This document shows positions 11,591 to 58,966 of a stretch of 60,522 bases of DNA, in pieces. Each line of letters begins with the position of its first letter. The first letter of the stretch is position 1. A program made the translations under genes and the position numbers. Below the pieces are notes generated by a model. The model did no database searches. It saw nothing but the letters and a program-made list of their open reading frames with translations, and was not told the DNA's origin. This DNA is from Dimargaris cristalligena (taxonomy: Eukaryota), in contig ML002243.1 in assembly GCA_003614675.1 (NCBI GenBank), positions 1 to 60,522 on the forward strand. Direction: 5' to 3'.

Positions 11591-13891
11591 TTAATACTTG
11601 GACAGCAACTCGTAAGGAGACACGGTAAATATGAGCATAATCAAAATAAGTACAGAGAGAATTATCAAAGTGAGATGGAACGAACTCACGGACAAGTAAA
11701 GACTGACGCACCAACAGGCCCCGACTATGCGGTCGGTATACCAACCCAGTCGCAGTTTCAACTGCCACCAGGGGTCAATGGTGAGGCCCGGTGGCCAGGA
11801 GTCATGGCAACGGCCATCCTCCGTATCATCCTCATCCTCATCCCCGTCATCATCATCATCAGTTTGACTGAAAACATTGGTCGGATCCGCCAGGGACGGA
11901 GAGGAAGGAGCAGCCAACGAAGCAGGGGTCGTGTGGACCTGGAATAAGCCGGATACCGGTCGATGGTCCGAACTAGTGTATGTAAAATGGGCCGAATAAA
12001 ACAACGGCACAATAGCCTGCGACTCGCCTACGCCTTTCACCAGTGACTGCGCCCGGGGTGGTTCCGTAGCACCCATGTCCCTGCTCCTACTCCTATTACC
12101 CATCCCAGGCCCATGGGTCCGGCGGTGCCGGGTTGGATTGCGCCGCGATGCTGGCCGGGACCAGAACAGGATCCGGTCACACCACGACGGATTCCGTTTC
12201 TTGTAGGTGTAGATATTACACCCGACGGTGAATTTATACGTGGGGTTGAACCGGATTTGGGCCTCGTCGAAATCGGCGAACGCGGCTCCGCTCTGTTTTA
12301 CGCGGATGAGTTCGTCGGACTGCAGAAGGATTTGGAGGTCTTTGTCGCGGAGTGGGATAGCCAAAGGTTTTTGGAAGTTTTTGGTGGTGCGGTAATTGAG
12401 GTCGCCGAGGAAGAACACGTGGTCGTGGTCGAAAAGCAGATCTTCGGCTTGGCCGACTTGAAAAGTGTGGGCGGGGGAATGGGTAGAAGGACGCGAAGAG
12501 GGACGGGTCCGGGAATAAAAATCGCCCTTGAGGTCATCGCTGCTACTAAAGGAGGAGGCAGAGGAGTCGTAATCATTGATTAAGCGGGGAATTACGACTG
12601 CAGGGGGGCCGGATTTATCGGGACTGCTGTCGACTGGTGCACGGAGGTTAAAGACGAGGCGGCGGCATATTTTATTATAGTCTCGGTTGCGTTGGGCGGT
12701 TAAATGTTCGTGGGCCGTGAGATGGGCCCCAATGAAACAGAGCTTAATAGGGGCCGGGGGTATCTTCGCCTTCGTACGGGTAAACGTAAATGATGATTTG
12801 GTCGACGGTGGCACTTCCTGTTCTTGGTAGGGGGGAGGAGGATCGTCATCGAGCGTGTCGGGTGGCTGAACTCGGTCGAACTGTAAACTAATTCCAATAG
12901 CGCCCTTGAGTCCAATAAAGGCCGGACCGCATCCCACTCGGTTGATTTGGACACTCCGGGGTGCCAACATGGGTACGGGTAAAGGAACAGCGCCGTCGTA
13001 TTTCAAAGTATAGATAAACAGGAGCATCCCCGCGTAGTGATGGACAACTAAGAGGCGGTAACGGAACCCCGTCCTAGCTTCTGCGGCCGTCAGATCCACT
13101 TCCGCACTTGCATGACTGCCGGCCAGCGAAGATGAGGAGAACGATGATGATGCAGATGCAAAAGAAGCGAATGAAGGGGCGGGAATATCCGTGTTGGCGG
13201 TTGAATCACCCGCTACCGTCAGTCCCGAAGAGGTAAAGGACCAAGTCAATTCCACAGGCAGCTCGACTTCGTTATTTGTTCCCGGGCGTAGCCGGCCCCG
13301 ACTGGCCAGGTCCGTGAGCTGGTCCAGGGAATTGGTGATCATGGTCGTACACGACCGGATAAGACCATTGTTGGAGTCTAACAGCGCGGTATTCAAAGGG
13401 CCGAATTCTTGGAACGCCATACAGTAGAGGTGGGGAAGGCGAAGAAGGAGTTGGCCACAGGGCCGGGGCTGGAATTGGGGCTGGGAGGAGTCGGCGGCGG
13501 AAGTAAGTGGCGTGGAAGGCGGGGACGAGAACAATGGGAGAGGCGGTGGGGACCGCAAGGGAACCGAGGCGGCGGGTGGAAGGGGCGGGGACGAGAAGGG
13601 GTCAAGTACGTGGGGCGGTGGGGACGACCGGTCGGCAGCCACTGGGTCAACATGGGAACTGAGCTTTGGGTTGGGGTTGGAGTTAGGGTCCGAGTTGGCC
13701 TGGGTGTCGGAGCTGGGGTCGACGGCAGTTTTGGAGTCGTCTTTGAGCAGCGTAACATTGGCCAATACCCCGGCCAATAGCCAGTCGTCGAGGGGTTGGT
13801 ATGGCAAACGACTTTGCGCATTGAAGGTGCCCGTGTATACTAGCAAGTCGCCGTGGGCGGAGGTCGCTGACAGTGGTTCGCAGGCGACCAT
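11591..13891 (-). CDS. Inositol polyphosphate 5-phosphatase with C-terminal TM tail (Inp54-like)
   Basis: 5-phosphatase motifs VYTGTFN, MAFQE, GLKGAI, GAHLTAH, FFLGDLNYR, PTYKF, PSWCDRIL, SDHRPV. Hydrophobic C-terminus LTLIILSVLILIMLIFTV. Intronless. Confidence 0.9.
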   Translation of the reverse strand: MVACEPLSATSAHGDLLVYTGTFNAQSRLPYQPLDDWLLAGVLANVTLLKDDSKTAVDPSSDTQANSDPNSNPNPKLSSHVDPVAADRSSPPPHVLDPFSSPPLPPAASVPLRSPPPLPLFSSPPSTPLTSAADSSQPQFQPRPCGQLLLRLPHLYCMAFQEFGPLNTALLDSNNGLIRSCTTMITNSLDQLTDLASRGRLRPGTNNEVELPVELTWSFTSSGLTVAGDSTANTDIPAPSFASFASASSSFSSSSLAGSHASAEVDLTAAEARTGFRYRLLVVHHYAGMLLFIYTLKYDGAVPLPVPMLAPRSVQINRVGCGPAFIGLKGAIGISLQFDRVQPPDTLDDDPPPPYQEQEVPPSTKSSFTFTRTKAKIPPAPIKLCFIGAHLTAHEHLTAQRNRDYNKICRRLVFNLRAPVDSSPDKSGPPAVVIPRLINDYDSSASSFSSSDDLKGDFYSRTRPSSRPSTHSPAHTFQVGQAEDLLFDHDHVFFLGDLNYRTTKNFQKPLAIPLRDKDLQILLQSDELIRVKQSGAAFADFDEAQIRFNPTYKFTVGCNIYTYKKRNPSWCDRILFWSRPASRRNPTRHRRTHGPGMGNRSRSRDMGATEPPRAQSLVKGVGESQAIVPLFYSAHFTYTSSDHRPVSGLFQVHTTPASLAAPSSPSLADPTNVFSQTDDDDDGDEDEDDTEDGRCHDSWPPGLTIDPWWQLKLRLGWYTDRIVGACWCVSLYLSVSSFHLTLIILSVLILIMLIFTVSPYELLSKY

Positions 13892-15515
13892 GGGGCAAAT
13901 GGTAAGTGTGTAGGCGGGTGGATATGAAGGGGAGGTAGTGCAACTGGATAAAAGCAAACGGGAAATGAAGAGAGGTCAAGAGGCAATGGAGCGGAGTGGA
14001 GTGGCGAGTGAGTTAACTAGGGGTATATAGTAAGTTTGGGTAGAAGAAGGAGGGGGGGAGGCGTCACTCTAGTGTACTTAGGTAGCCCCGGCAGCGGCTG
14101 GGGAAGCTAACTAACTAGCTAGGCACGCGTTATACACGCTCTCATTTGGAACTAACTATCCATCTGTCTCGATGTCTATGCGGCCTCTCTCCTATTCTTA
14201 GCTTCCAGTGCGATGGATACATGAGCGCAGTGCACGCACTCCTTCCTTCCTTCCTCCCTCCCTAATTCCCCCGCCCAGCCTCTTTGTTATCTGGGAATCC
14301 GCGGCCTCTATTTGCCACCTTTTCCCCCTGGTGTTGTTCCTCACTGCTGCACTTCACCTGCAGACTGACCTAAGGGGTTGCCGTGGAATTTACAGGCATA
14401 TGAGGGGAGGTGTTCGGTCTGATTGTTCAAGCCCGATGCATCTGGATTCTCCCAAGCGGCAATGAAATGCGATTATACGTCGGAAGTTCGCCACCACGGG
14501 CACATCTTATATGAGTATGTGGGAGGAAGATTAGCACAATACTCCCGATGAGACAATATTAATATTTTGCCTATCGCACCTATTCTGGATTAATGAGTGA
14601 TGATGATACGTGTCACGAGGAGAACGGGTCAGTCGAAATCACCGCCTTACATTGTCGTCCATTTGGCAATTGACCACCGCTCTCTGGCCACATCACCAGC
14701 AAATAATTTCGGAGGTTGATTACAATTGTATGTCGAACAGAGCTGGTGGTGGATGGTGTCCTCCGTAAGCCGATAATAGGGATATAATTTTGAGTAACCA
14801 ATGCGACAGCTTCACCTTTACTTCTAATTGAGCCTCGATATCTCTCCACCAAGATCACCCTGACCGTCATCTTTCTGCTCTGCCCCCAAGTTACGCATAC
14901 TGCTTCTTTTGTACGTGGTATGGGCGAAATGCGTACTTCCCTCCCGATTGATTAAATACCTTGCGATGTCCGGTTCCTTTAAGGAGTAGACATCGCCATT
15001 TCTTTGGCCACATCACCCCGTTCTCATCCCTCCGGCCGGTGTAGAACCAGACTGACGGGATGGTGATAAATTCAGTGACGTCACATGACTGGAGGCACCT
15101 AGTGGAGGAGGTTCTGCGGCTTCTTCAGGAGGATAAGAAGTATTTCGATTACACGCACTCAACGTCAGAAACCAACCAACCACTGCTACATATACTACTC
15201 ACCCATTAAGAACAGTGCTTGGCTGTCCCCAGCCCATATTACCGCAGCAGGTAGAGGGCATTAGTTATATACCCAGAGAGAGACCACCACACATCATCAT
15301 TCAGCCCCAGGCGCCGCATAAACTATTAAAGAAAGAGTCCAACGCATATAACTAATACCCCCCCTCCTATTCACTTTCAGTATTCTGAACCCACCGCTTG
15401 TCTTTCCTTTCCATTGTGCCATAATTCCCCCTACTAACTTCATTACCATTGATAACTACTACCCTTTCTCATTCCAGCATACTATACCATTCCTGATTAC
15501 CGTATAGTATACACC

Positions 15516-16796
15516 ATGTCGCCAAGGCCAGCAACCTCCCCCGAACCCCCCTCTAACGAGCCTCCTCCTAAATTCCAGGTCGTCGACCCCCTTGGCGAGG
15601 GCAACCCTTCTTTCGTACCTACCGTCACTGTGTCTCCTTCGTCGTTCCCCCCTGCCCCCACCCCCAGCCCCAATCCCAAACCCACCACCACCACCCTGCC
15701 GGTCTATACTTCACCTCCTTCGCCCCCCGCGGTCACTCGCACCCTGTCCCGACGCGAACGAGCCACCCGCAACATTCTCATATCCGGTACTGGCCTAGCC
15801 ATTCTCTTCGGTTTCACCGTCCTCATCGGTACCGTTCTCAAGGAATGGTTCGTCTTGGACCAATTCGCCACTAATCTAGAGCAAACCTTAGCCCATGCTG
15901 CTCCGGGTGCTCACGGGGTGCTACGGACGGCCGATAATAGCCATGGTGGAGGAGCGGCAGGTGGTACCCTTCATAAATTAGATTCAACGGTCGGCAGCCA
16001 TCCCCCCATCGACCCTCTTCTAAATATCCGACTCACCGCCGCCCAAACCACTTGGACCCAGTACCTACTCCTGTTCTTCGCCGACAAACGCAACCCCCTT
16101 AACCGTATTTTCGCCAAATGGGGCTGGGCCTGGACCACCGCGGTGTTCTTTACATATGTCCTGGTGGTGATTAACCGGCGGCTACCGGGAACGTGGCCCC
16201 GGTTCGCCTTACGCTGGGGTATGGCCACCCTGTACTGGTATTTGCTGACCCAATGGGCATTCGGTCCCTCCTTCTTTGACCGCGTATTCGTGGGGAGTGG
16301 GGGACGGTGTGCCGCCACCGCTAATAGTAACAACGACCTTGACGGTTTTGGTGCTGGTGAATCAACCACCCAATGGAATGCGGACGCGATTTTCAGCTAC
16401 GCACAATGCCGGCGGGCCCGCGGTACCTGGACCGGAGGGCATGATATTTCGGGACACTGTATGCTGTTAGTCCATGCCTCCCTTTTTCTATGGGAGGAAC
16501 TGTCGCCCTACCTCTTCACCATCACTTTACCCTCTTTCGCCTCGTTCCACCCCGACTGGACCCGCCGCCTCACAGCGGCCCTGGTTGTGACTTTTATTGT
16601 CCTCTGGTACACCATGCTGGTGGTAACGGCTACTTTTTACCATAGTATCCGTGAGAAATTCACCGGCTTGATCTTTGGGTTCCTCTACTGGTTTGTGGCC
16701 TATTTGTATCTGTTCCCCAGTACCACGTACCCCGGTATGCCCGTGGATAGTATTTTGGACGACCCCGCTTCCGAAGAAACCGACAAGCGCAAATAA
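15516..16796 (+). CDS. SCS3: FIT family (Scs3/FIT2) ER acyl-CoA diphosphatase
   Basis: KRNPLNRIFAKWGWAWT, WAFGPSFFDRV, GHDISGHCMLL and TATFYHSIREK motifs; multiple TM helices. Confidence 0.92.
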   Translation: MSPRPATSPEPPSNEPPPKFQVVDPLGEGNPSFVPTVTVSPSSFPPAPTPSPNPKPTTTTLPVYTSPPSPPAVTRTLSRRERATRNILISGTGLAILFGFTVLIGTVLKEWFVLDQFATNLEQTLAHAAPGAHGVLRTADNSHGGGAAGGTLHKLDSTVGSHPPIDPLLNIRLTAAQTTWTQYLLLFFADKRNPLNRIFAKWGWAWTTAVFFTYVLVVINRRLPGTWPRFALRWGMATLYWYLLTQWAFGPSFFDRVFVGSGGRCAATANSNNDLDGFGAGESTTQWNADAIFSYAQCRRARGTWTGGHDISGHCMLLVHASLFLWEELSPYLFTITLPSFASFHPDWTRRLTAALVVTFIVLWYTMLVVTATFYHSIREKFTGLIFGFLYWFVAYLYLFPSTTYPGMPVDSILDDPASEETDKRK

Positions 16797-33796: not shown

Positions 33797-34555
33797 ATGA
33801 ATAGATATAGGGGGGGGAGTTCCCCCTCGGTTAATTTCCTGACTCGTTTTGACACCCGAATCCTAATTGAATCTACCCATTTGTACGCTGATATTTTCCG
33901 AATCGAGCGGGTGGCAAAGATGCACGTAGGGTCAGAATTGATTATCCTAGAGAATGGCAATTGGTTTAGTTAGTGCCTATAGCTAATATGTATATGTTTC
34001 GGACATTGAGTATGAAAAATCAATGGTTCCAAAAATCAAAACAACTACTTAACGGTGTGAACGAATCATTAAATGTATGTATGTTGTAAATTTGGACGAC
34101 CGATTCTTGAGCATTACCAAGCGTAGAATGGGAAGGGGGGACAAGATGCTATAATAGTTGGCTCATTCTAAATATGATATTTAATTGAACACTTCTGTAT
34201 CGAGATACGGTTGTGTGATAGGTGCTATATTCTCTGCTTATTCACGTTAATCGTTGTTTCCTGAGAAAAGTGGGGAAACGGTGGGCGAATAGCTCACCAG
34301 ATATTGGAACGGATGATGTGTCTAAGGATAACGTCATAAGGCCCGTTCGTAAAATGATAATAGGCCTTATATATTATCAGCATGCCAGTTGGCTCCTCCC
34401 ACCCAGCGAGTTCCAGCAGTCCGAATTTTATCTGAACCCCCTCGTTGAAAGAAGGCCAGCCCAGCTCAGCTGGTAGAGGTATCCTTCCCGACCTTCGCCT
34501 GCTTTTTCCGTATTGCCCTCAAAACTGCCACGGGTTTTATTCTCCTGTTTCCATT

Positions 34556-37500
34556 ATGCCTTCCCGTATGCGCTACTATGTGGGAGTGGATGTCGGTACC
34601 GGTTCCGTTCGAGCGGGTCTCTTTGCCCTAGCCCCTCCACCATCCCCGGTGGAAAGAGACGAAACGGCGTCTTCGACCTGCTCGCAAGGGACTGCTGCTA
34701 GTAGTAGTAGTAGTAGTTCCGCAGCTTCCGTTCCCGCCTCCTCTTCGGCCCAAATGGTGGCCCTTCATAAACAGGCCATTACCACCCGTACCAACTGGCA
34801 CCCCGTGTTCCGAGGTCCCCCTCATTCTACTTTTTCCTCCTCCTCTTCAACCTCTTCGGAAGCCGTTAGCGTGCGTCAATGCGTCCAATCCAGTACCGAA
34901 ATCTGGCAAGCGGTTTGCCATTGTGTGCAACAGTGTCTCCAAACCGCCCAAGCGCACCACCACCGGTTACAGCAACTGCAGCAGTCACCGGAGGGGGTTG
35001 CTTTTGATGTTACCCAAGTCGCCGGGATTGGTTTCGATGCCACTTGTTCTCTAGTGGTCTTGGCGGAGCCTCCCCCAACTACGCCTACGCCCACTTCTAC
35101 TCCTACCGCCCATAATACCACCACCACCACCACTACCACTTACCCAACCCTGTCCCAGGCCCCGGCTGAACAATGGCAGCCTATTGGGGTCTCCCAGACT
35201 GCTTTAAGGGCCCGTATCCACCGACTTTGCGGGGCTGAAGGGGGGACTGGGGAAATGAACGACCATGAAGGACGGGGGGAAAGGGGCGAGAGCGGGGAAG
35301 AAGGAGGCCCCGGCTCACCGTGTCCTTTACGTCAAGAGGCCGATGGTTCCACGAAAGATGATGATGATGATGCGGCTGATAATGCTGGTGAAGATGGAGA
35401 TGCTTTTAATGTTGTCCTATGGATGGACCACCGAGCGCCCGACCAAACCGCTCGTATTAGTCGGTCATCCGTGGGAGCCCAACGGGTATTTCGGTATGTG
35501 GGGGGCCAAATGTCCATTGAAATGGAACTACCCAAGATTCTGTGGCTGAAAGAGTACTGCCTCTGGGGTGATCACGGCCATCATCACCCCGGACGCCACC
35601 AGCCCCGGCCGTCGTACCCACCCAACTCGGAGGCCCCGAACTCAAACTCAAACTTGAATTCGACCTCCGCCTCAGCCCCAGCCCCAGCCCCAGCCCCAAC
35701 TCCAACCTCAGCCGTACCGTCCGAATCCGGCCAACGCGTTTGGGATTCGATGCACTTTTTTAGTCTATCCGACTTTCTGACCTTTCGCTGTACCGGTCGG
35801 CCGGCACGGTCCACGTGTTCGCTAATTTGTAAATGGGGTTATCTGCCCCCCGGGACCGTCCCAGCTGATTCTAGTGGAGGGGGTTGGGACGGGGCGTTTT
35901 TGCGGGATATCGGTTTGGCCGACCTAACCGTTGACCACTATAAGCGGATTGGTGGCCACAGCGGTACGGCCCATACCGAAAAGGCATGGGGTGGTGGTGA
36001 TGATCATGATATTCATAATCATAATCATAGTGGTGATCCCGCGGAACTAGTCCATCGGGCCGGCGACTGGGTGGGCAATTTGACCCCCCAAGCAGCTCGT
36101 GAATTAGGGTTGACCACCCAAACCCGAGTGGGTTCGGCGGTCATTGATGCCTACGCGGGCTGGATTGGGACGGTCCTCACCATGAACCCGGCTGATGCAG
36201 CCGTTACCCCGAATCAAAACAGCCACTCCCCTAATGGCCATGCGGCTGCTTCCTCCGGGACCACGGCACTGGTAGACCAAATGACCCACCGCCTAGTAAT
36301 TACGTGCGGTACTTCGTCGTGCCATTTAGCCGCCCACCCCCAGCCCCTCTTCGTGTCGGGTATTTGGGGACCATACTACAACGTTGCCGTACCCGGCCTG
36401 TGGCTCACGGAGGGGGGGCAGAGTGCCACGGGGGCCTTGGTGGACTACCTAGTAAGCCAGCACCCGGCTTACCCTTGGCTGTATCAGGCTATACGGCAAG
36501 GCCACTCCCCGTCCGCTCTTCTATCGGGGAATCCTTTTGCCGGACAAAGTGGCCGTGGCACTGCTTGTGTAGTACCTCCTAGAGGGAAACTACAGTCCGC
36601 TAAACCTACTTCAGCCGTCTACGACTACCTTAATGCCCTAGTTCGGGAGGCGGTGGCTACCCCCTCCTCCTCCTCCCCTCGTCACCAGAGCCCCGGGTTA
36701 GAGTTACCCACACCGGTGACCCAGCTGGAGCAACCCTATCGGGGGTACTTGGATCTCATTGACCACCAAACGTACCATTTTCTCCCCGACTGGCACGGAA
36801 ATCGTTCTCCACTCAGCGACGCCAGTTTGCGGGGGGCTATCGTGGGCCTTGCCCTGGACGAAGGGTCCTCTAACGATCACGGTAATCCCCTCGCCCTAGT
36901 CAAGGTGTATCTGGCGGCCTGTATGGCCCTGGCTTACGGCACCCGCCAGATTATCGACCGTCTCACCGGGCCCCAACCCAAACCTAAGCCTAAGCAGGGT
37001 AATCTTACTACCCATCATGCGGAGGGTCCCCATGTTTCGGCGGCGGAGTTGCCGCTCGGGCAGCAGCCGAGGCATGTCATCACTGAATTAGTAATGGCGG
37101 GTGGGTGGGCCCAAAACGACCTTTTTGTCCAGATACACGCCGATGTGACGGGTCGGCCGGTTTACGTACCGCAGGTGGACCAAGGGGCCGAAGTCGTTTT
37201 GGGGTCGGCCATGTGTGGCTATGCCGCCGAGTTAGCAGCGGAGGCAATGGAAACAACGGTAGCGGCAGCGACAACAACAGTGGATGCCAAGTCACCAGCC
37301 CCTCCTACCTGTCCACTGAACGAGCAGTCCGGGGCCCGACGATCCCCTCCTAATGTCAAATTCCCGATACCCCCCCTCCCAACTCCCGGCACGGACCCGC
37401 AGTTCTTGCTCACCGCTATGCGACATATGCGCCCCCCACCCGGCCGGGTGGTCCTGCCCTGTCTAACGGACCGGGAACGAACTATCCATGGGCGCCGGTA

Positions 37501-37570
37501 TCAAGTCATGTGTCGAATGCAACAGGACCAAAAGGCCTACCAAGCGATTATGGCTGGACAGTCGTTGTAG
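34556..37570 (+). CDS. FGGY-family carbohydrate (D-ribulose/pentulose) kinase with long low-complexity insertions
   Basis: YYVGVDVGTGSVRA, GIGFDATCSLVV, VLWMDHRA, EMELPKILWLK, IDAYAG, GTSSCH, WLTEGGQSATG, PDWHGNRSP. Intronless; start taken at ATG 34556. Confidence 0.92.
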   Translation: MPSRMRYYVGVDVGTGSVRAGLFALAPPPSPVERDETASSTCSQGTAASSSSSSSAASVPASSSAQMVALHKQAITTRTNWHPVFRGPPHSTFSSSSSTSSEAVSVRQCVQSSTEIWQAVCHCVQQCLQTAQAHHHRLQQLQQSPEGVAFDVTQVAGIGFDATCSLVVLAEPPPTTPTPTSTPTAHNTTTTTTTTYPTLSQAPAEQWQPIGVSQTALRARIHRLCGAEGGTGEMNDHEGRGERGESGEEGGPGSPCPLRQEADGSTKDDDDDAADNAGEDGDAFNVVLWMDHRAPDQTARISRSSVGAQRVFRYVGGQMSIEMELPKILWLKEYCLWGDHGHHHPGRHQPRPSYPPNSEAPNSNSNLNSTSASAPAPAPAPTPTSAVPSESGQRVWDSMHFFSLSDFLTFRCTGRPARSTCSLICKWGYLPPGTVPADSSGGGWDGAFLRDIGLADLTVDHYKRIGGHSGTAHTEKAWGGGDDHDIHNHNHSGDPAELVHRAGDWVGNLTPQAARELGLTTQTRVGSAVIDAYAGWIGTVLTMNPADAAVTPNQNSHSPNGHAAASSGTTALVDQMTHRLVITCGTSSCHLAAHPQPLFVSGIWGPYYNVAVPGLWLTEGGQSATGALVDYLVSQHPAYPWLYQAIRQGHSPSALLSGNPFAGQSGRGTACVVPPRGKLQSAKPTSAVYDYLNALVREAVATPSSSSPRHQSPGLELPTPVTQLEQPYRGYLDLIDHQTYHFLPDWHGNRSPLSDASLRGAIVGLALDEGSSNDHGNPLALVKVYLAACMALAYGTRQIIDRLTGPQPKPKPKQGNLTTHHAEGPHVSAAELPLGQQPRHVITELVMAGGWAQNDLFVQIHADVTGRPVYVPQVDQGAEVVLGSAMCGYAAELAAEAMETTVAAATTTVDAKSPAPPTCPLNEQSGARRSPPNVKFPIPPLPTPGTDPQFLLTAMRHMRPPPGRVVLPCLTDRERTIHGRRYQVMCRMQQDQKAYQAIMAGQSL

Positions 37571-39523
37571 GTTGGGCGAGGAAGTAACCCCCCCCCCTTC
37601 ACACTCTCGTGGTCCAGTATTTTCTTTAAAAAAATGGGATTTGAATAAAGCAATTGTTTTGGGGCTAATAATTATAGACCTTTTACCCCTCTCTGCCCTA
37701 TTGATCGAGGGGGACGCCGACACCACGCCTTGGGTGGTATAGCTGGGGACTTTATATTTTTTATTGAAGGAGTAGGTTGAAACTGGCTAATGTAATTGGC
37801 GATAAGTACGTGGCCTGTGTGTGTGTCTGTATAAACCCCCACTGACTAATATAATCCTTGGTTTTCGGAAGTTACGGATAGATTGGGCAGTGCCATTGTA
37901 ATTATTATCGAGGATGGGCTCAGGCTTTTCAACTATTGCCCCTGCTTTATATCTCACCGATGTAATATAAGATCCGAGAAGATTCGGACTGTAAGCCTTC
38001 GGTCAAATATCCAAGCTTAGAGTGGTCAGGAGGGGGGCAGAGGAGGTGGAAGGAGGGATATCGGAAACCCACCTTCGGCTTCCATGGCGGGGTTCGGAAA
38101 AATGCAGAGTAGTTCCAATTAGTCATGACGCCTCCCTCTCCCTCTCTTTCAACTCGAATAAAATAGTACATTAGTGTAATGGCCCATGCTTAGCCCTATA
38201 CATTTATATCCGGTTGCGCAGTAAAAGTTACACCAAGATATGAGCCGCGGCCATACTAACCGCGAGGGCCACACCATGGACTTATAGGCGGAATTTTGGA
38301 CCACTCAATGGACCCGGGCTCTGATATATATATATATATTCCGGGAACCCCCGTTTCAGAGGACAAAGGATCTGGGAATCATATGCCCAACGAAGGGTCT
38401 TTAGCCTTTTCGTCCGATCCCTCTTTCATCCCTCCCCACCCATCCAATAGGCGGGTACGGCCCCCAAAAATAGCTCGAGGCCCTCAATGAGGCCAGCGAA
38501 CATCCAATGCTTAGCAGCCCTTTTCCCTTCCTCCAGCTCTATTCTGGCAAATGGTTTAAGCCAAACTCCGCTGTATTCGATCTCCTACCTTCCCGTCCCC
38601 TCTGCTATACTCGCCAATTAGATATTGATGAGATCCGTGGCACAGAACAGGTGTACTTTATTCGCATATCCTTGGGCTGACCCAATTGACTGGTGTCGCC
38701 TTAGATTTGAGGGTACAGGGAAAGAGAAGGTGGAAAAAGAAGAGCCCAAGGATCTCTGTAAGTGGGGAGAGGGGGATAATTTAGGGAAAGGTCGAGGAGT
38801 TCCGAGCCGGCTAGCCATAGGCCCACACTATCCCCACCTCCTTGCTTTGGCTTCTTTCGATGCCTTCGGTGGAGAATATTACCCGATCCCGCCTCCCTTT
38901 GTTTAGTTTAACCAAAAGGGGCGTTCCTTCGATTTGCATAGTTTTAGTTCCTGCGCTAATTTTTAGGTGCGGCGTCGGCCACTTTGGTACCTTCCCGAAA
39001 ACCCTACCACTCAACAGGAACCATTCCCGCCCTATGCCCCGAAAAATGAACATATATAAATGGTCCCCCGCTCCCCTCTTCTGCTATTCAAAATCAACCT
39101 TACCACAGCCGATATTCACCCAGTCTAACACCAGTTTATTAATTGGAAGTCAACCGCCACTTATTTATATCACCAGCATTTGGTTTTTGAAAACGTTTCG
39201 CCCTATTATTCGTTTTGACCATTAATTCTACTTGTGATTTACATATAGTTTTGTCTATTCTTTTTTAGATTGATCCAGCCTAAAAAATAATATATATACT
39301 GGCGGCTTTCATTTTGAATTTTGACTATCCAGTTTAATAGATTTTTCGAGACCTGCCGGTCTGTGTATATAGGTTAATTTTTATAGATATTACTTTTTAA
39401 CTCGTCTTACTCTACCGTATCTAGCCCACTGCCACTAAATTATTTACCGTTTTACTTTTTTAAAACCCTGTTTTTACTTAACCCCCCGACCCCAGCCCAA
39501 AAAACCACCTTACTTTTATCATC

Positions 39524-40243
39524 ATGAAGATCCTCCTCGCTTACGTTGCCCTCCAGACCGTTTTGCCCGGCTATTTGGCCAGCCCGTCGCCCGCTCAGGC
39601 CACTGGTGGAATGGTACCTCTACATCGTCGGGACCTTGGTGGACCCTCTTCGTCAACCTTAGCCGCGTCCACCCCTTCCATTCAGCTCCAGAAGCGCAGC
39701 CCCTGGTTCAACCGGGAGGGCGAAACCGACACTAGCTCGTCCGACACCGATACTGACGAAGAGAACGTCCGCTACCCCGTCGAACAATCCAGTGCAGGCT
39801 TAGTGCGCCGCGGGCTTCGACTCCAGAAGCGCAGCCCCTGGTTCAACCGGGAGGGCGAAACCGACACTAGCTCGTCCGACACCGATACTGACGAAGAGAA
39901 CGTCCGCTACCCCGTCGAACAATCCAGTGCAGGCTTAGTGCGCCGCGGGCTTCGACTCCAGAAGCGCAGCCCTTGGTTCAACCGGGAGGGCGAAACCGAC
40001 ACTAGCTCGTCCGACACCGATACTGACGAAGAGAACGTCCGCTACCCCGTCGAACAACCCAGTGCAGGCTTAGTGCGCCGCGGGCTTCGACTCCAGAAGC
40101 GCAGCCCCTGGCTCAACCGGGAGGGCGAAACTGACACCAGCTCGTCCGACACCGATACCGATGAAGAGAACATCCGCGACACTGTGCCATTGGCGCGCCG
40201 TGGACTTTTCCGGCGTAAGTTTACGATGACGCGCGAAATCTAA
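39524..40243 (+). CDS. Secreted Kex2-processed repeat protein (peptide precursor)
   Basis: Signal-peptide-like MKILLAYVALQTVLPGYLA; four units each preceded by LQKR and followed by RR; 45-aa period. Confidence 0.85.
   Translation: MKILLAYVALQTVLPGYLASPSPAQATGGMVPLHRRDLGGPSSSTLAASTPSIQLQKRSPWFNREGETDTSSSDTDTDEENVRYPVEQSSAGLVRRGLRLQKRSPWFNREGETDTSSSDTDTDEENVRYPVEQSSAGLVRRGLRLQKRSPWFNREGETDTSSSDTDTDEENVRYPVEQPSAGLVRRGLRLQKRSPWLNREGETDTSSSDTDTDEENIRDTVPLARRGLFRRKFTMTREI
39686..40210 (+). repeat. 135-bp tandem coding repeat, 3 full copies + 1 diverging copy
   Basis: CTCCAGAAGCGCAGCCC starts at 39686, 39821, 39956 and 40091. Copies 1-2 appear identical; copies 3-4 carry a few substitutions. Confidence 0.95.
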
Positions 40244-45490: not shown

Positions 45491-48431
45491 ATGTCAAACG
45501 ACTCACCCCTGGATACGCAGGGCTCAGCCGCTCAGTTCAATTCCCGCCAGTCCACCGGATCGACCCAGGATCTGCCAGACGAATGGACTGAGTAAGACTA
45601 TTTCTCAATTGCTACCAGAAAACGGTAGGAAAGTGGAGGGGGTGGGTGAGTTGTACTACCCATCTCTAAGCTAGTTCCTGAGCTGGGGAACGTCATGTAG
45701 GGAGTTTTCCTTAGGCGCACCTCCTCCCAGCCCATTGCTTACCTAGTCCAGGGCCGCATTAAGCAACCGGCAATGCCGTTGCCATGAGTCGTTCAGCCCC
45801 CTCCCCTCCTCCATCGACCATTTCGTATATTGTTTTATGCTCGTATATCCCGTAATTCTAATCCACACTCTTTACTTATTCCTGCTCTTCCTGGACTACA
45901 CCAACACTAGAAAATTGCTCGAACCCGAAGACCCCACGAACCAAGATACCGTGTACGCCCGCCTAGAAAAGGAACTTCACACCGGTGGTAGCTACTACGC
46001 CCTACTCAACGTGCCTACCGATGCCTCACTCGAACAGATTCGCGATAGTTACCGGCGCCTATGTCTGCTGTTTCACCCCGACCGGCAGAATTCCCCTGAG
46101 GCCAGCCATATTGCCCGACACCAATTCGAGAAAATCCATCTGGCCTACGAGGGTAAGTTATTCCAGAAAGAAAAAATCCCAGACTTCACAAGACCCTGCT
46201 ATTTTACACTACTTTGGTTGATTCGGGATTTACCTATCCGGTGGCTGTAACGGCTCATTGTTATGTCCTACGTAATAGTAACCCCGCGGCCGTCATCTAC
46301 TTATTTTCCTATTATTTACTATCCATCGGGCGACGTACGATACACCACAGTGCTCTCGGACCCCCAACGACGCCTGGTCTACGATGAACTGGGCGAAGGT
46401 GGTCTATTCCTGACCAAAGACACTCAGGTCACCGAACAAGAAAAGGATACCTTGTTGGGCGCGGGTGTAGTCGGCCAACGATTCAAGACTCGCGACGAAT
46501 TGCGCCGGGAAATGGAACGCCGGATTCTACAGCAACGCCAGGAAACCCTACGCCACTTGATCAAATCAACCGGTGAAATTGAAATTCAGGTAAACGCAGT
46601 GCCCGTTTTAAATTATCGGCCGAAGGATGAATTGTTCTCCGATCCCCTGGCTCAGCCCCCTAAAGAAGAGCAGGAGGAAGAAGGCCCCGTTCGCCTGGTG
46701 ACTAACCAGGGCTCCTTTACTCTCGCCCAGACCGCCTCAGCCCTAACCCGTCCAATTCGGTCGGTTTGGCAATGTCTGGACCAGGCCCAATCCGAAAGCG
46801 TCAAGGTACAGCACGGCTTTGATGTTCCCTTGACGGACCAGCTGTCGGCCTCCCTGGTGGGTAGCATCACCGCCGGCGGCCAAGCGATGCGGGCCGATAC
46901 GATCAAGATGGTGCTGAAGCACCACCAGAGCAGTAATCTGTTTACCCAGTATGGAGTAACTCTCACCCAGCCCCGCCAAATCAGTTTCCAGGGGCAGTAC
47001 CAAATGGGGCAACAGGCGTTCATGAACTGGAAAACCACCATGAGCCGTCCGAATCGACCTCCCCCCGCCAGTTTTACCGTCGGCCGGGTCCTGTCGAATC
47101 GCGTCACCATGATGGCTACCTTCAAAACGGGTACGTGGTCCATCGGAAGCTGGGGCCGGCATCCCGGACTGGGGGGAGGCACCCGGCGGTCCCCGGCCCC
47201 CGTATCCGGCAACGGTTTGTGGCTATTCCCCAAGGCTTCCACCTCGCTCTGTTTCGTACATAATACCCGAAAGACCAATACCTCCGTGGATGTCCAGGCC
47301 GGACTAGCCGAGTCCTACCTGGCGGGCAATTACCGCCGTAATTTGCAGCCAGGGGTCGATTTAACCGGTATCGTGTCCCTATCCAACCAGTCGGGCCTTT
47401 ATTGTGCGCTGGGGACCGAAAATCGTGTCACCGCCCATTCCCGCCTGGGGTGGCGCTTAAGTTTCGGGTTTCCCATGGGTATCATCCTGCAGCTCCAGTT
47501 CAGCCGGCTGGGCCAGACCGTACGGGTCCCCGTCATCCTTACCCACTCCCCATCGTTGCGCACCCTAGTCCTAGCCCTCGCGGTGCCCATGGTCACCTCC
47601 GTGGCCCTCCACCAGTGGGTCGTCAAACCCCGGCGGCGGCGCCAAATTCGGGACCAGGTCGACGTGCTCCGCGACGAATTCCGGGACACTTTACTGACCC
47701 GTCGGCGGGAGGCCGAATCGACCTGGGAGATTTTGCGTCCCCTATCTGCCAAAAAGATGGCCGCCGAGACCCAGAGTCACGGTCTGGTGATCGTGGAGGC
47801 CTATTACGGCCACTTTGGTCGCCCCTTAAACGGATCTAAAACCCATGGGAGGGGTGGTCCCATTGCTGCCGCCGCCTCCTCCTCTTCGTCCTCCTTGCAC
47901 GCGGGCTCAACCATTTCTTCGACCCTCCGCCAGTCCCTAGCGTCCATTCCCCTCGGTATGTTCGTTCCATCGACCGCCAACGTCGATGATCAGCGGGGAA
48001 CGGACTCCTCTAAGAATAGTCCCCGGGTCATTGATGTCACCATCCCGGTACAATATTTGGTGACCGACTCCCGACTGCTTATCCACGGGGGTACGTCCAA
48101 GGCCGATTTGGTGGGCTTTTACGATCCTTGTTTCGGTGAAACTAAGCAGCTGCGGGTGACTTATCGGTTCAATGATCAGTTACATACCGCAATTGTGGAT
48201 GACCAGGCGCCCCTGGCATGCCCGCTACGATGTAAGTTAACTGATTTAATTTTATATCCTTTTGTTTGGACGCAAGGATACTAGGTCCCTTGGGTGGATT
48301 TGTGTTTGTAAATACTATGCTATGAATCACTGGAACTAATAGTTAATTTTTGCACAACTATGTTATATCTCTTATTACCCTAATGGGGTATTATCGCGTT
48401 CAACCCGAAAATTCCAGCCCATTTGGAATGA
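45491..48431 (+). CDS. DNAJC11-like J-domain protein, 4 exons
   Basis: Exons 45491-45591, 45911-46152, 46351-48231, 48418-48431. J domain YYALLNV...FHPDR...AYEVLSDPQRRLVYD; C-terminal RLGQ..VPV, GLVIVEAYYG, IDVTIPVQ, GFYDPCFGETKQLRVTYRF. Confidence 0.9.
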
Positions 48432-54500: not shown

Positions 54501-54901
54501 ACTCGGACCCGATGGGAAGGAGCCGCACTGGGAGCGGCGCCCTTATAAAAGTCCCTGGGCCTGCCCATGTAATAGCGGAGTGTAACTTACATTATCAGCC
54601 TCTTTTCCTACCTTGCTCTAGTTGGATTCGTATAAGTCTCCTTTTTCCCCGCCCAACTAGCTTTAGCTTGTTATCTCGCCAACCCCTTTGCACGCCGCGT
54701 CCTACGGAGCCCTACTGTTATTGGCCCGTATTTATTCTCCGAAGCACAGACGCCTCAGTGGCCAATAGCCAACCCCTTTTGCTGCTGCTTCAGTTCTTTA
54801 TTAACCGACGCGGTGCTCCTGTTCTCCACCTCGACGCCTACTTCCCTGTACATTGGGATAGGGTCCATTGACCGCACCCCTCTAGCCTTAGTTTAGCCAG
54901 C

Positions 54902-57900
54902 ATGTCGACTCCCCATCCCTCTTCTACACCGGGTGCCTGGGTTGACCCTACCATAGACCGGTCGCTTCTACGTTCCCGCACCTTCCCTCCCCTTTTGGCA
55001 GTCCCGGGCCAGCAGGCACCGGGCGGGCTGAACCGACAACCAACGTCCATGTCCAATGTCACCCTTTTTACCACGACCATGCCTACCGAGCTGTACAATC
55101 GGGAGCGACCCCCCGGCACCTACGAGTCCGGCTGGTGGCGCTTCCCGTCTCTGAACAGCCTCAGCTTCGAACTCGACGCAGGCATACGCGGTCGGGCCTG
55201 GTCCTTCTTCGATTTAAGTTTGAGCATAGCCCAATGCCTCCTGTTTATTTGCAGCACCGCGTATGTGGATGCAGCTGAGCGGCCCATTCCGCTGCCGGCT
55301 TACTTGAGCGGTCTGGAGATTCTCGTGGCCCTCACTATTTTGCTCGAGTCGGGACTGCGCAACCTTCTCCTATCCCGGGCCCGTCGGACCCTCTACGCTA
55401 CCATGCTGGTCCTTGTAACCGTTCCCCCGATGATAGCCGGCTGGAATGCCCTGCAGTATCCCGCCAGCGCAGCCACCTACCTTAGTGCGGGCAATTGGGT
55501 GCTGTTCTACCCGATTCGCTTTTACCGATTGTACCTGTCTAGTGAACAGGCCTTCGCTCCCGGGCGAGTACTTCTGTTTAACATTGGCCCCTTTTATCGT
55601 AAATTCGCCACCCTGGTTTCCGCCGTGCTTAGCACTATTATGGGCATAGCGGCTTTTATCCACGCCGTACTCCATTGGTACCCGGGTTCCCACGTTGAGC
55701 CCGAGTTCAGCTACTTCGATGCCTTCTTTTTCAGCGCCACCTGTATCACTGTTGGACCAAACGACAACATCGTTCCCGACGTTTGGCTGACTCGCATTAT
55801 GACGCTAGTCACTATTTTCGTGGCGGCCGTGTTTTTACCCACCCAGATCAGCGACCTTATCGGCATGATTGAGAAACAAACCTCCGGTTTTCAGTTGAGC
55901 GTGCCCGAAATCACATCCAGCCAGTGGGTGATTATTGCCGGCAATTTGAGCTTCGAGGTTGTACAGCCCTTTCTTAGAGAATTCTTCAGCCCTGACCACG
56001 GTGAGTCGATTCAGCGGGTCTCGGTGGTCCTGCTCAGCAAAGCCCACCTTAGTGATGATCTGCGCGGGTTCCTCGCCGATCCCATCTACTCTACTCGGGT
56101 GTTCCACTATCGCAAAGACCCCACCAACTACGAGGTGCTGGCCAAACTAAACGTGCAGCAGGCCAGTGCCGTATTTATCCTGGGCGACAAATGGACCAAA
56201 GTCTCGCCCCACGAGGAAGATGCCCATGTGGTTCGAATTACCCTGGCCTTTGCCTCGTTCTTCAAAAAAAAAAATTATGTCGTGGTGCCCCGTCTCTACT
56301 GCCAGGTGATCCTGCCCGACTCGCAGTTCCACTTTAAGGGCTGGGGGCTATACCGACCCACGGTCCAGTGCGTCGACGAATTCCGCATGGGCCTCATGGC
56401 ACAGAGTTGCACTACCCCGGGGTTTTCCACCCTGATGCACCTGTTGTCTTCCTCGGTGACCCAGGATACGGCCAATGTCATTACCGATGCCTTAAAAAGT
56501 CAACTGCCGACGGGTGAGCTCCCCTGGATGCCCATGTACTTGGAGGGAGTGATCCAGGAGATTTACCAAATACGCATCCCCACGGGCTACCACGGGTATC
56601 ACTTCGGCACCGTCGCCCGGTCCATTTACTTTAATTGCAAAGCGGTACTCATTGGGCTGGGGGTCCGGCCTACGAGCCGGGGCGGCGGGGCGGCCGCGGA
56701 CTACGCCCCCAGTTCGGCGGCCGAAGGGAATACCGGAACCCACCGCCTCTTGATGGCCCCCTTTAACCATATCATCACCAGCGGGGATATCGGGTTCGTC
56801 ATTGCCAAAGACGCTAATATCCGCGAGATCATTGACCGAATCCAAGTGGCGGTGAATCGGCCGCCCCCTAAATCCGGGGCAGGTAGTCAGCCGGCCGGGA
56901 CTATGCAGCTTTCGGCCAATATTACGCGTATCCCCTCTCAGACGTCCCTATACGATTCCGCGATGCTGCTACCCCAGACCCGTATCGGCACTGCGGAGAC
57001 GACCCCACTCCTGTCTTTGGAAAGTCCCGCCGATGATTCCCCTACTTACGATGGCAGTCCCGGTAATTCTGCTTCAGGTCAGTTGCACTGGGCCCCCCCT
57101 AATCGGCAAAACCCTAACAACCATAGCGATCACGATGATGGTAGCAGTATCCATGCTGACCCGGTCTTTGATTCACCACTACCCCGCCCGGTCAATTTGG
57201 CCGCTCGTACGGGTAATGGTTCCGCCCACCATTCGTCCGATGACGGAGGGACCGCACCCGGCAGCGTAGAGCCCACCGAGCAACTGCACCAGAGGGTCCG
57301 CCGAACCTTTGACCGGGTGTTTGAGTCCACCCCGGGCGTAGTCAATTACGTCAAGGACCGGTACGCCAATGTGGTTCGGGAGCAACGCCTGGTTCCCGAA
57401 GACATCGATAACCACATCATCATAACCGACTGCAGTCCCGAATTCCCGCGGAATATCGAATATCTGGTCGAATCCATCCAATTAGCGTATAGCCAGGAGA
57501 ACTACGATACCCCTCCGCCAATTGTCATTCTTAGCCCCGCCGAACCCAGCTTCTTGCTCAAGCGGTGGCTCGAGTCCATTGAGGATGTCCACGTGGTACC
57601 CGGTACGCCCCTCAATTACATAGATCTTAAGATGATCAAAATTAACCGAGCCCAAACCGCTATTGTGTTATGCCACCTGTCCCCGTCCGGTGACGGAGAC
57701 CTCTCGGCCCGGTCCATTGATGCGACTTCTCTAATGGCCGAAATGAATCTGCGCCGGTTTGGTAACCGAAACTTGAAAACGATTGTGGAGGTGGCCTATT
57801 CGGGCAACGCCCAGTTGATTCCCCAGGAGTTTTTCCCGGATATTGACGACCAGGACGTGCAGGATCTGACGCGACAGTCGTTCATGTCTGGATCGGCGAT

Positions 57901-58966
57901 TCTCCCGGCGATGCTAGATAATTTGATTTGTACCTCCTATTTCAATCCCTTCCACTTGGATATTTTTAAACACTTGATTTTTCCCTATGATCCGCAGGCT
58001 AGCCGGCGTTCCCCACCCTCCTCCCGCCGCCGGCAGCACCTCCAAAATGGGGGGGACCTAGCCCCCGCTAGCCCAGTACTGGTAGGGGCCAATCACCTTT
58101 TCCGGGCCAATAATGGCGAGTCAGCAGCCCAGGGCCCTGGTTTACTGAGCCCCACGGACATGCCCGACGCCATTGCTATTCGAATTACCGGGGATTCCGA
58201 CGAGAGTAGCGCCTCCAATTCCCCCACCAGTGAAATGATCGAGCGGTTCTCCCCGGCTCTCGGACCGGCCGCAGTAACTACCCGACCCGCGGATCCAATT
58301 GCCCAAAACCACCACCACCAACCCCTCCCCAACGGCGGGACCCCTCCTGTCGCTGGTTCGGGCCCTGCCTCGCTTAATACCGAGCCAGCCGCAGCCGGCC
58401 ACGGCAGTGATCGAGAGGACCACAATTCGGCCAAGTCCATCCGCCACTCCCAATCACTCCCCGCCCTGGACCAGCTTTACTCCGCCCAGTCCACCCCACT
58501 GAACGCGAGTTCCGCCATCTTAACCAGCGGGCGGATCTTCCTCATCCCGGTGACCCGGGCGGGGGAAAAGTACGGCAAACTCGTGAATCGCCTGGCCAAA
58601 TACGACCAGGCCATTGCCCTCGGCTTATACCGGCTGGTCGAGAGCCGTGGGTTCAGTTACCGGTGTGTCATGGTTAACCCTCGGGCTGATCACCTAACCT
58701 TGGAAACGGACCAGGTATACGTACTGGCTCCCCGGCGACCCGACCAACTGGTCGCCATGAATAACATGCACCCTAGTGATCCAAGTCTGGAACCTGACTT
58801 TAACCACCAACCGCAGTCGGATCACTCTTCCACCGGAGGGTCGGCCAGACCTACCCGTCCGTACCGACGACCCATATTCAACAATCTATTGAAAATCAGC
58901 ACCCACAACCAAGACCGTTTGAATGTAGTTCCTCAGGACGGTATGATTTCCCCCGTCGATATCTAA
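54902..58966 (+). CDS. Slo/BK-like channel (TM domain + two RCK domains) with non-canonical selectivity filter
   Basis: Multi-TM N-terminus; pore helix YFDAFFFSATCITVGPND; FLREFFSPDHG; VQCVDEFRMGLMAQSCTTPGFSTLMHLL; YLEGVIQEIY; NHIII; GTPLN; Ca-bowl-like DIDDQD followed by FMSG...LDNLICTSYFNP. Intronless, 1354 aa. Confidence 0.88.
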   Translation: MSTPHPSSTPGAWVDPTIDRSLLRSRTFPPLLAVPGQQAPGGLNRQPTSMSNVTLFTTTMPTELYNRERPPGTYESGWWRFPSLNSLSFELDAGIRGRAWSFFDLSLSIAQCLLFICSTAYVDAAERPIPLPAYLSGLEILVALTILLESGLRNLLLSRARRTLYATMLVLVTVPPMIAGWNALQYPASAATYLSAGNWVLFYPIRFYRLYLSSEQAFAPGRVLLFNIGPFYRKFATLVSAVLSTIMGIAAFIHAVLHWYPGSHVEPEFSYFDAFFFSATCITVGPNDNIVPDVWLTRIMTLVTIFVAAVFLPTQISDLIGMIEKQTSGFQLSVPEITSSQWVIIAGNLSFEVVQPFLREFFSPDHGESIQRVSVVLLSKAHLSDDLRGFLADPIYSTRVFHYRKDPTNYEVLAKLNVQQASAVFILGDKWTKVSPHEEDAHVVRITLAFASFFKKKNYVVVPRLYCQVILPDSQFHFKGWGLYRPTVQCVDEFRMGLMAQSCTTPGFSTLMHLLSSSVTQDTANVITDALKSQLPTGELPWMPMYLEGVIQEIYQIRIPTGYHGYHFGTVARSIYFNCKAVLIGLGVRPTSRGGGAAADYAPSSAAEGNTGTHRLLMAPFNHIITSGDIGFVIAKDANIREIIDRIQVAVNRPPPKSGAGSQPAGTMQLSANITRIPSQTSLYDSAMLLPQTRIGTAETTPLLSLESPADDSPTYDGSPGNSASGQLHWAPPNRQNPNNHSDHDDGSSIHADPVFDSPLPRPVNLAARTGNGSAHHSSDDGGTAPGSVEPTEQLHQRVRRTFDRVFESTPGVVNYVKDRYANVVREQRLVPEDIDNHIIITDCSPEFPRNIEYLVESIQLAYSQENYDTPPPIVILSPAEPSFLLKRWLESIEDVHVVPGTPLNYIDLKMIKINRAQTAIVLCHLSPSGDGDLSARSIDATSLMAEMNLRRFGNRNLKTIVEVAYSGNAQLIPQEFFPDIDDQDVQDLTRQSFMSGSAILPAMLDNLICTSYFNPFHLDIFKHLIFPYDPQASRRSPPSSRRRQHLQNGGDLAPASPVLVGANHLFRANNGESAAQGPGLLSPTDMPDAIAIRITGDSDESSASNSPTSEMIERFSPALGPAAVTTRPADPIAQNHHHQPLPNGGTPPVAGSGPASLNTEPAAAGHGSDREDHNSAKSIRHSQSLPALDQLYSAQSTPLNASSAILTSGRIFLIPVTRAGEKYGKLVNRLAKYDQAIALGLYRLVESRGFSYRCVMVNPRADHLTLETDQVYVLAPRRPDQLVAMNNMHPSDPSLEPDFNHQPQSDHSSTGGSARPTRPYRRPIFNNLLKISTHNQDRLNVVPQDGMISPVDI

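Follow-up and report, generated by a model that had tools for sequence, protein, structure and literature searches.

The stretch of DNA analysed here, which we call the window, comprises 60,522 nucleotides of Dimargaris cristalligena (assembly GCA_003614675.1, contig ML002243.1). Near its end lies an intact gene of the Slo family (positions 54902-58966, plus strand) that encodes 1354 amino acids from the first ATG with no internal stop, within a stop-to-stop reading frame of 54872-58966 (+). The database entry with the identical sequence is a hypothetical protein of D. cristalligena. Two Pfam families were found above the cut-off, BK_channel_a (PF03493, aa 488-586, E 4.6e-20) and Slo-like_RCK (PF22614, best stretch aa 836-960, E 2e-25), and two below it, Ion_trans_2 and Slowpoke_C. 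All 30 of the 30 PDB sequence matches are Slo channels, and the full-length profile match to Slo reaches an E value of 1.5e-128. Two marks of the Slo family are present: two tandem cytosolic RCK domains (Pfam and the full-length profile) and a six-helix S1-S6 core with a pore loop (AlphaFold models and structure alignments). The intact ORF with both RCK domains given in the preliminary description was thus recovered. The features of the gene are as follows.

54902..58966, plus strand: intronless Slo-family ORF with S1-S6, RCK1, RCK2 and long low-complexity linkers, without S0 (Pfam, PDB alignment, hydropathy)
55184..55552, plus strand: S1-S4 voltage-sensor-like domain, aa 95-217 (AlphaFold helices)
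55517..55528, plus strand: S4 RxxR (R206, R209), reduced yet conserved voltage-sensor charges (alignment)
55589..55678, plus strand: S5 helix, aa 230-259 (two models)
55712..55750, plus strand: pore helix, aa 271-283, to 284 in one model (DSSP, two models)
55748..55780, plus strand: rebuilt selectivity-filter loop TVGPND-NIVPD, aa 283-293 (alignments)
55784..55882, plus strand: S6 helix, aa 295-327, with the conserved P313 (model, alignment)
55922..56677, plus strand: RCK1, aa 341-592, with D365 and E553 (Pfam, alignment, structure match)
57407..57781, plus strand: first part of RCK2, PF22614, aa 836-960 (Pfam)
57824..57877, plus strand: acidic stretch, aa 975-992, containing 6 Asp/Glu and aligned with the Slo1 Ca2+ bowl (Aplysia Slo1 alignment)
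58562..58726, plus strand: C-terminal Slowpoke_C-like lobe, aa 1221-1275 (PF21014, E 0.014, under the Pfam cut-off; Aplysia Slo1 alignment)

The AlphaFold model has a mean pLDDT of 88.4, with about 84 at the filter. Its transmembrane part superimposes on human Slo1 (8vav; Z 16.7, rmsd 3.4, 223 aligned residues) and its RCK1 on Aplysia Slo1 (9di8; Z 20.4, rmsd 3.4, 240 aligned). The homotetramer prediction, made with the transmembrane part only, scored 0.19 against a mark of 0.32.

At the selectivity filter the protein reads TVGPND (aa 283-288, nt 55748-55765), aligned to TVGFGD of Aplysia Slo1, in agreement with the earlier assignment of a Slo/BK-type channel carrying this motif. Few ion-channel motifs are as conserved as the GYG/GFG signature, which in its canonical form, TxGYG/GFG, is absent from the query; the query's loop holds one Gly, no Tyr/Phe, one Pro, and Asn/Asp at the outer mouth. 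Five DNA sequencing runs from two studies contain this stretch, and we compared 4 of them over the gene, three of which may themselves be the source of this DNA. The filter is covered by all four, and in the run of the second study a single contig extends over the whole gene. This contig differs from the query gene at 12 positions, one of which is read in the same way in two first-study runs; 11 of the 12 differences are silent (p 1.5e-5, with the chance rate of silent changes assumed to be 30%), and the only one within the filter, T55750C, is among the silent ones. TVGPND is moreover identical in D. verticillata and D. xerosporica. Because the second study differs by one silent base there and two further Dimargaris species share the motif, a sequencing or assembly error is excluded as its source; the runs of both studies read TVGPND and not GYG, the outcome that the preliminary description had named as fatal to its claim. 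Purifying selection acts on the intact gene, so that an error or a decaying pseudogene, for which we found no supporting observation, can be dismissed.

The alignment of this loop with canonical filters leaves room for two solutions. The pore-helix aromatic F276 and the post-filter P292 are 16 residues apart, as in 50 of the 58 relatives outside the fungal clade described below, but the filter Gly stands at offset 9 from the aromatic and at 10 in these relatives. A plain one-residue insertion after the filter is wrong for the query and for the main group of the clade, since the span is unchanged; the additional residue is found only in the basal subclade and in a sponge protein. The Pro may thus stand in place of either the Tyr or the first Gly. 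In the two-gap register T-V-G-P-N-D would face T-V-G-Y-G-D, with one pore-helix residue lost and one gained past the filter, and in the gap-free register V-G-P-N-D would take the place of T-V-G-Y-G. HMMER and hhalign both pick the two-gap register, which is ahead by 15-16 BLOSUM points before gap costs, a lead that two gap penalties would cancel; the basal fungal forms with one additional residue also make it plausible. The modelled pore helix, which ends at T283 in one AlphaFold model and at V284 in the other, leans towards the gap-free register by the geometry of KcsA. Pro is unable to take the left-handed backbone angle of the first filter Gly and is compatible with that of the Tyr, and a left-handed Gly is commonly replaced by Asn/Asp. 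In either register the loop has lost the aromatic buttress and one Gly. The proposal that Pro and Asn occupy the YG positions is therefore likely but not certain, and the gap drawn between SATCI and TVGPND corresponds to one of the two registers, not to the sole one.

Looking at the relatives, we searched 50%-identity representatives and used the best 150 of 1285 matches; together with the matches of a further search, 154 proteins were aligned, and the 132 with enough coverage went into a tree from which the filter columns were left out. Among these best 150 of 1285 matches the query falls in a clade of 74 rows, a few of them near-duplicates (FastTree support 0.967), and GYG/GFG is found in 0/74 clade rows as compared with 49/58 other relatives. 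Nine of the 22 rows dropped from the tree have a whole filter, again without GYG/GFG (0/9). Besides the query, 26 clade members are named, all of them fungi or aphelid, from the genera Amoeboaphelidium, Globomyces, Zopfochytrium, Quaeritorhiza, Paraphysoderma, Sorochytrium, Massospora, Smittium, Kickxella, Martensiomyces, Mycoemilia, Spiromyces, Dispira, Tieghemiomyces, Dimargaris, Ambispora, Saitoella and Dipodascopsis. They comprise an aphelid, chytrids, blastoclads, zoopagomycetes, one glomeromycete and two ascomycete yeasts. A 39-row IQ-TREE analysis gave the clade a support of 93/89, just short of strong. A single-gene oddity is thus excluded by the loss in 74/74 clade rows. The preliminary description had left it to an alignment whether GPND is conserved among fungal Slo homologs: GPND itself is confined to Dimargaris (3 species), the loss of GYG/GFG extends over the clade, and the latter is the larger finding.

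Several rows deserve mention in their own right. A Slo-like protein of the calcareous sponge Sycon ciliatum (P0080) reads TVGYVDD and is extended by one residue, just like the basal fungal subclade. It falls together with the fungal clade (99/97 with this protein included), a grouping that reflects an ancient Slo lineage of opisthokonts or, alternatively, long-branch attraction. Among rows that lie outside the fungal clade, the filter Gly is missing from a Phytophthora kernoviae protein (P0122), and one group carries GYS, GYN, GYE or GYQ variants (P0129, P0103, P0111, P0121, P0124, P0134, P0135). Saitoella and Dipodascopsis (P0048, P0056), the ascomycete yeasts that keep the family, could be convenient knockout hosts.

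Within the clade several filter types were distinguished. The main group (53 rows) has the Gly in 52 rows, mostly followed by L-S-T-D/Q/N-I-x-P-D and preceded by Ser/Thr in 48; the commonest clade filter is S-T-S/T-G-L-S-T-D/Q. A basal subclade of 6 rows shows TVGY (2/6) or TI(S/A)Y, in each case followed by an additional residue, with a span of 17 in 6/6. The Pro group, 8 rows all from Dimargaritales, reads G-P in 8/8 and has an acid at 287 or 288 in 8/8, as against 4/53 main-group rows; G-P-E also occurs in two long-branch rows that were assigned to the main group. No aromatic occurs at 286/287 in 8/8 Pro-group and 52/53 main-group rows, and neither group has a second Gly. In S6, A308 of the query is at a position with Gly in most of the clade. 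The sister of the Pro group (7 rows, the named ones from Spiromyces, Martensiomyces and Kickxella) has short, degenerate loops, with a span of 14-15 in 6/7 and no Gly at offset 9 in 7/7. The Pro group and its sister together make up a branch (100/100) next to a G-L-S-T/G-L-x-S-D branch of the same fungi (100/99). Since the two adjoining branches come from the same fungi, the tree shows a duplication in Kickxellomycotina that freed one copy, which duplicated again in Dimargaritales. Three paralogs are found there: the query type, whose branch is long, a second Pro type, and a G-L-S-T type known from Dispira simplex, Tieghemiomyces and D. verticillata.

As regards the gating parts, no hydrophobic segment precedes S1 (over the first ~90 aa the 19-residue hydropathy peaks at 0.21), and S0 is absent. 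S4 is charged as in Slo1: R206 and R209 are Arg in 37/53 and 44/53 main-group rows, respectively, and in 7/8 Pro-group rows. In the Aplysia Slo1 alignment D365 and E553 are matched to acidic residues of the Ca2+ site in Slo1 RCK1; as most non-fungal relatives also keep these acids, they are no proof of Ca2+ gating. At the Ca2+-bowl position 5-6 acids per 18 residues occur in 4/4 orthologs (6 in the query) and 0-5 in other rows, although they do not form Slo1's run of Asp. For the query's ortholog group it is reasonable to infer Ca2+ gating.

Judging from its filter, the query probably passes ions other than just K+. With no Tyr/Phe and only one Gly, loss of canonical four-site K+ selectivity, as proposed in the preliminary description, is a reasonable inference. 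The filter of TbIRK prefers K+ without the signature (PK/PNa > 7, in the available text of PMC5429665). Our preferred reading, to which we give a probability of roughly 0.5, is a ligand-gated, non-K+-selective cation channel, possibly permeable to Ca2+. The query would be a functional subunit on the Slo scaffold, with a pore that has given up canonical K+ selection. Four subunits would assemble an RCK gating ring, and S6 would be opened by a ligand from the cytosol, most likely Ca2+ in view of the acidic stretch at the bowl position. The filter, wider, poorer in carbonyl sites and ringed by Asp/Asn, would let Na+ and K+ pass with little discrimination, and possibly Ca2+, in the style of NaK, CNG and CASTOR, so that the channel would depolarise or feed Ca2+ signals, not repolarise. 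The query has kept the S5-pore helix-S6 fold, the S4 RxxR and both RCK domains, and Pro and acid were gained in its own branch. According to the available texts, NaK with TVGDG is non-selective and its TVGYGD/TVGFGD mutants are K+-selective (PMC8689586), CASTOR, RCK-gated and without TVGYG, is Ca2+-regulated and Ca2+-selective (PMC6697748), and protozoan GYX paralogs are left as non-selective or non-functional (PMC3283738). Several points speak against the preferred reading: the degenerate loops of the Kickxellomycotina sister branch suggest that this duplicate can drift from conduction, the query itself sits on a long branch, and the two-gap register could leave the backbone K+-channel-like.

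The first of these points leads to the non-conducting regulatory subunit of the preliminary description, that is, a modifier silent on its own that would co-assemble with the G-L-S-T or the second Pro paralog and tune gating, selectivity or trafficking. The Dimargaritales offer three paralogs, the duplicate branch (100/100) includes the degenerate loops of Spiromyces and Martensiomyces, and a precedent exists in TbK1, which lacks a conserved filter and whose partner TbK2 is required for current (stated in the available text of PMC6974456). The pore loop is, however, the best-conserved part of the protein among orthologs. With 3 orthologs, aa 276-286 ranked first of 676 eleven-residue windows (82% identity against a core mean of 39%) and aa 283-293 fell in the top 4%; when the second Pro paralog was pooled in, the rank of the pore loop fell to the top 4-12%, with 12% of windows as good as aa 281-291. 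D. verticillata matches 14/15 filter-loop residues of the query at 48% core identity, and the pore-loop fold superimposes on Drosophila Slo (Z 10.4, rmsd 3.2, 99 aligned). This conservation, the confident model and the intact fold argue against decay, with the caveat that the peak is centred on the pore helix, which is also a subunit-packing surface. The G-L-S-T partner, for its part, is known from the three fungi named above, which do not include D. cristalligena, no sign of a channel partner was seen among the listed ORFs of the window, and as this partner also lacks the K+ signature, a heteromer would still be non-canonical. The silent subunit is thus weakened and keeps roughly a one-in-five standing.

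A channel that still prefers K+ through a differently built filter, with backbone carbonyl sites persisting in the two-gap register, appears unlikely. The register chosen by HMMER and hhalign is the one it calls for, the basal subclade (TVGY plus one residue) is a plausible stepping stone, position 284 is Ser/Thr in most main-group rows (48/53), and TbIRK sets a precedent (PMC5429665). Yet TbIRK still has Gly-Tyr, whereas both fungal groups lack the second Gly and nearly always the aromatic, and the modelled ends of the pore helix favour the gap-free register, where Pro would fall on the first Gly with its left-handed angle. The fold says nothing on selectivity, as in a search with the pore-only model HCN, Slo, hERG, AKT1 and CNG were tied within 1 Z unit and Foldseek gave no match at E 0.001 or better.

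More improbable still is a pore that carries H+, an anion or some small solute, or a protein that senses voltage or a ligand and has its pore as a mere scaffold. Ser/Thr abound in the main fungal filter, which is not known to resemble any named filter, and S4 charges and RCK motifs are kept; on the other side, turret and pore loop of the query carry 5 acids and 0 bases, a net acidic outer pore that disfavours anions, and the literature examined held no precedent.

The non-selective cation channel that we prefer can be set beside known systems. With Slo1/BK (KCNMA1) the query shares S1-S6 and two RCK domains, the S4 arginines, the acidic stretch at the bowl position and the best profile match (433.7 bits for Drosophila Slo vs 381.7 for chicken Slo2.2); it differs in the absence of GYG/GFG and S0, in having only two S4 Arg and a weaker bowl, and in an identity of about 20%. 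Like Slo2/KCNT (Slack, Slick), narrowly its top Foldseek matches, it has no S0, and P-D after the filter and the S6 Pro recur in a Slo2-like mollusc row; unlike them, it lacks the K+ signature and keeps the S4 RxxR. Two Slo2-like rows lie outside the fungal clade, in trees without named Slo1 or choanoflagellate rows and with weak deep branches. The nuclear RCK channels of plants, CASTOR/POLLUX/DMI1, are an analogue in working: their pore lacks TVGYG and bears an RCK gating ring, with, for CASTOR, Ca2+ regulation and Ca2+ selectivity (PMC6697748, available text). Their similarity is confined to a distant RCK match (E 3e-8, 74-128 positions) and does not extend over the whole channel, the query being a six-helix Slo homolog without the ADSGNHA-type filter given for them in that text. 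NaK and CNG resemble it in pore-loop fold, TVG-like start, lost Tyr and an acid in the filter, but have no RCK ring; NaK keeps both glycines, and homology is confined to the pore. TbK1/TbK2 and TbIRK of Trypanosoma brucei are likewise K+-channel homologs with non-canonical filters, of which one needs a partner and one is K+-selective; they belong to non-Slo families and are isolated paralogs, not a whole clade.

More broadly, and tentatively (we would put it at about one chance in four), fungi and aphelids may, in a single early event, have turned the Slo/BK scaffold into a family that does not select K+. The Dimargaritales Pro/acid paralog would then be a Ca2+-activated, Ca2+-permeable channel, a BK-derived independent counterpart of plant CASTOR/DMI1, and paralogs with different filters might mix in one tetramer. 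A whole Slo clade has swapped GYG/GFG for other conserved motifs, and the resulting natural series on one scaffold (TVGYGD, TVGY+1, S/T-G-L-S-T, G-P-acid, collapsed loops) lends itself to tests of selectivity change. The clade may also reveal an unrecognised route of Ca2+ or cation entry in early-diverging fungi.

In the literature searched, mostly papers outside subscription, we found no report of the filter loss, nor any paper about fungal Slo filters; supplements of 10.1101/2021.06.01.446568 (Figure S1, Table S1) and of PMC11995700 may list these proteins. In their available texts, the former, a preprint, notes fungal species with Slo2-like genes and is silent on the filter, and the latter counts KCN matches by phylum only. 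One fungal survey accepted only filter-similar matches and, in its available text, reported only K2P and Kv types (PMC3410928), and another removed sequences without G[YF]G[DE] (PMC7678990); as far as these texts go, such requirements would hide proteins of the present kind. A survey of Kv-like and CNBD channels describes filter deviations in single channels, with CNG as the one clade-level exception (PMC7576140, available text). ESM Atlas gave generic Slo/ion-channel clusters only. A word-index search with alignment over proteins of 2891-5000 aa gave no match, and a second such search gave 3 matches, all known proteins.

Elsewhere in the window, ordinary neighbours are an Exo_endo_phos2 phosphatase (11591-13975, minus strand), a FIT fat-storage protein (15456-16796, plus strand) and DNAJC11 (46251-48284, plus strand). 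An FGGY carbohydrate kinase of about 1000 aa (34436-37570, plus strand) is interrupted by long low-complexity inserts. A small protein with a hydrophobic N-terminus (39482-40243, plus strand), in which Pfam found no family above the cut-off, contains 3.6 copies of a 135-nt (45-aa) repeat, 97% matched (39686-40177). Each copy presents an acidic Ser/Thr-rich peptide after a Lys-Arg pair, and the protein is presumably a Kex2-processed repeat peptide precursor.
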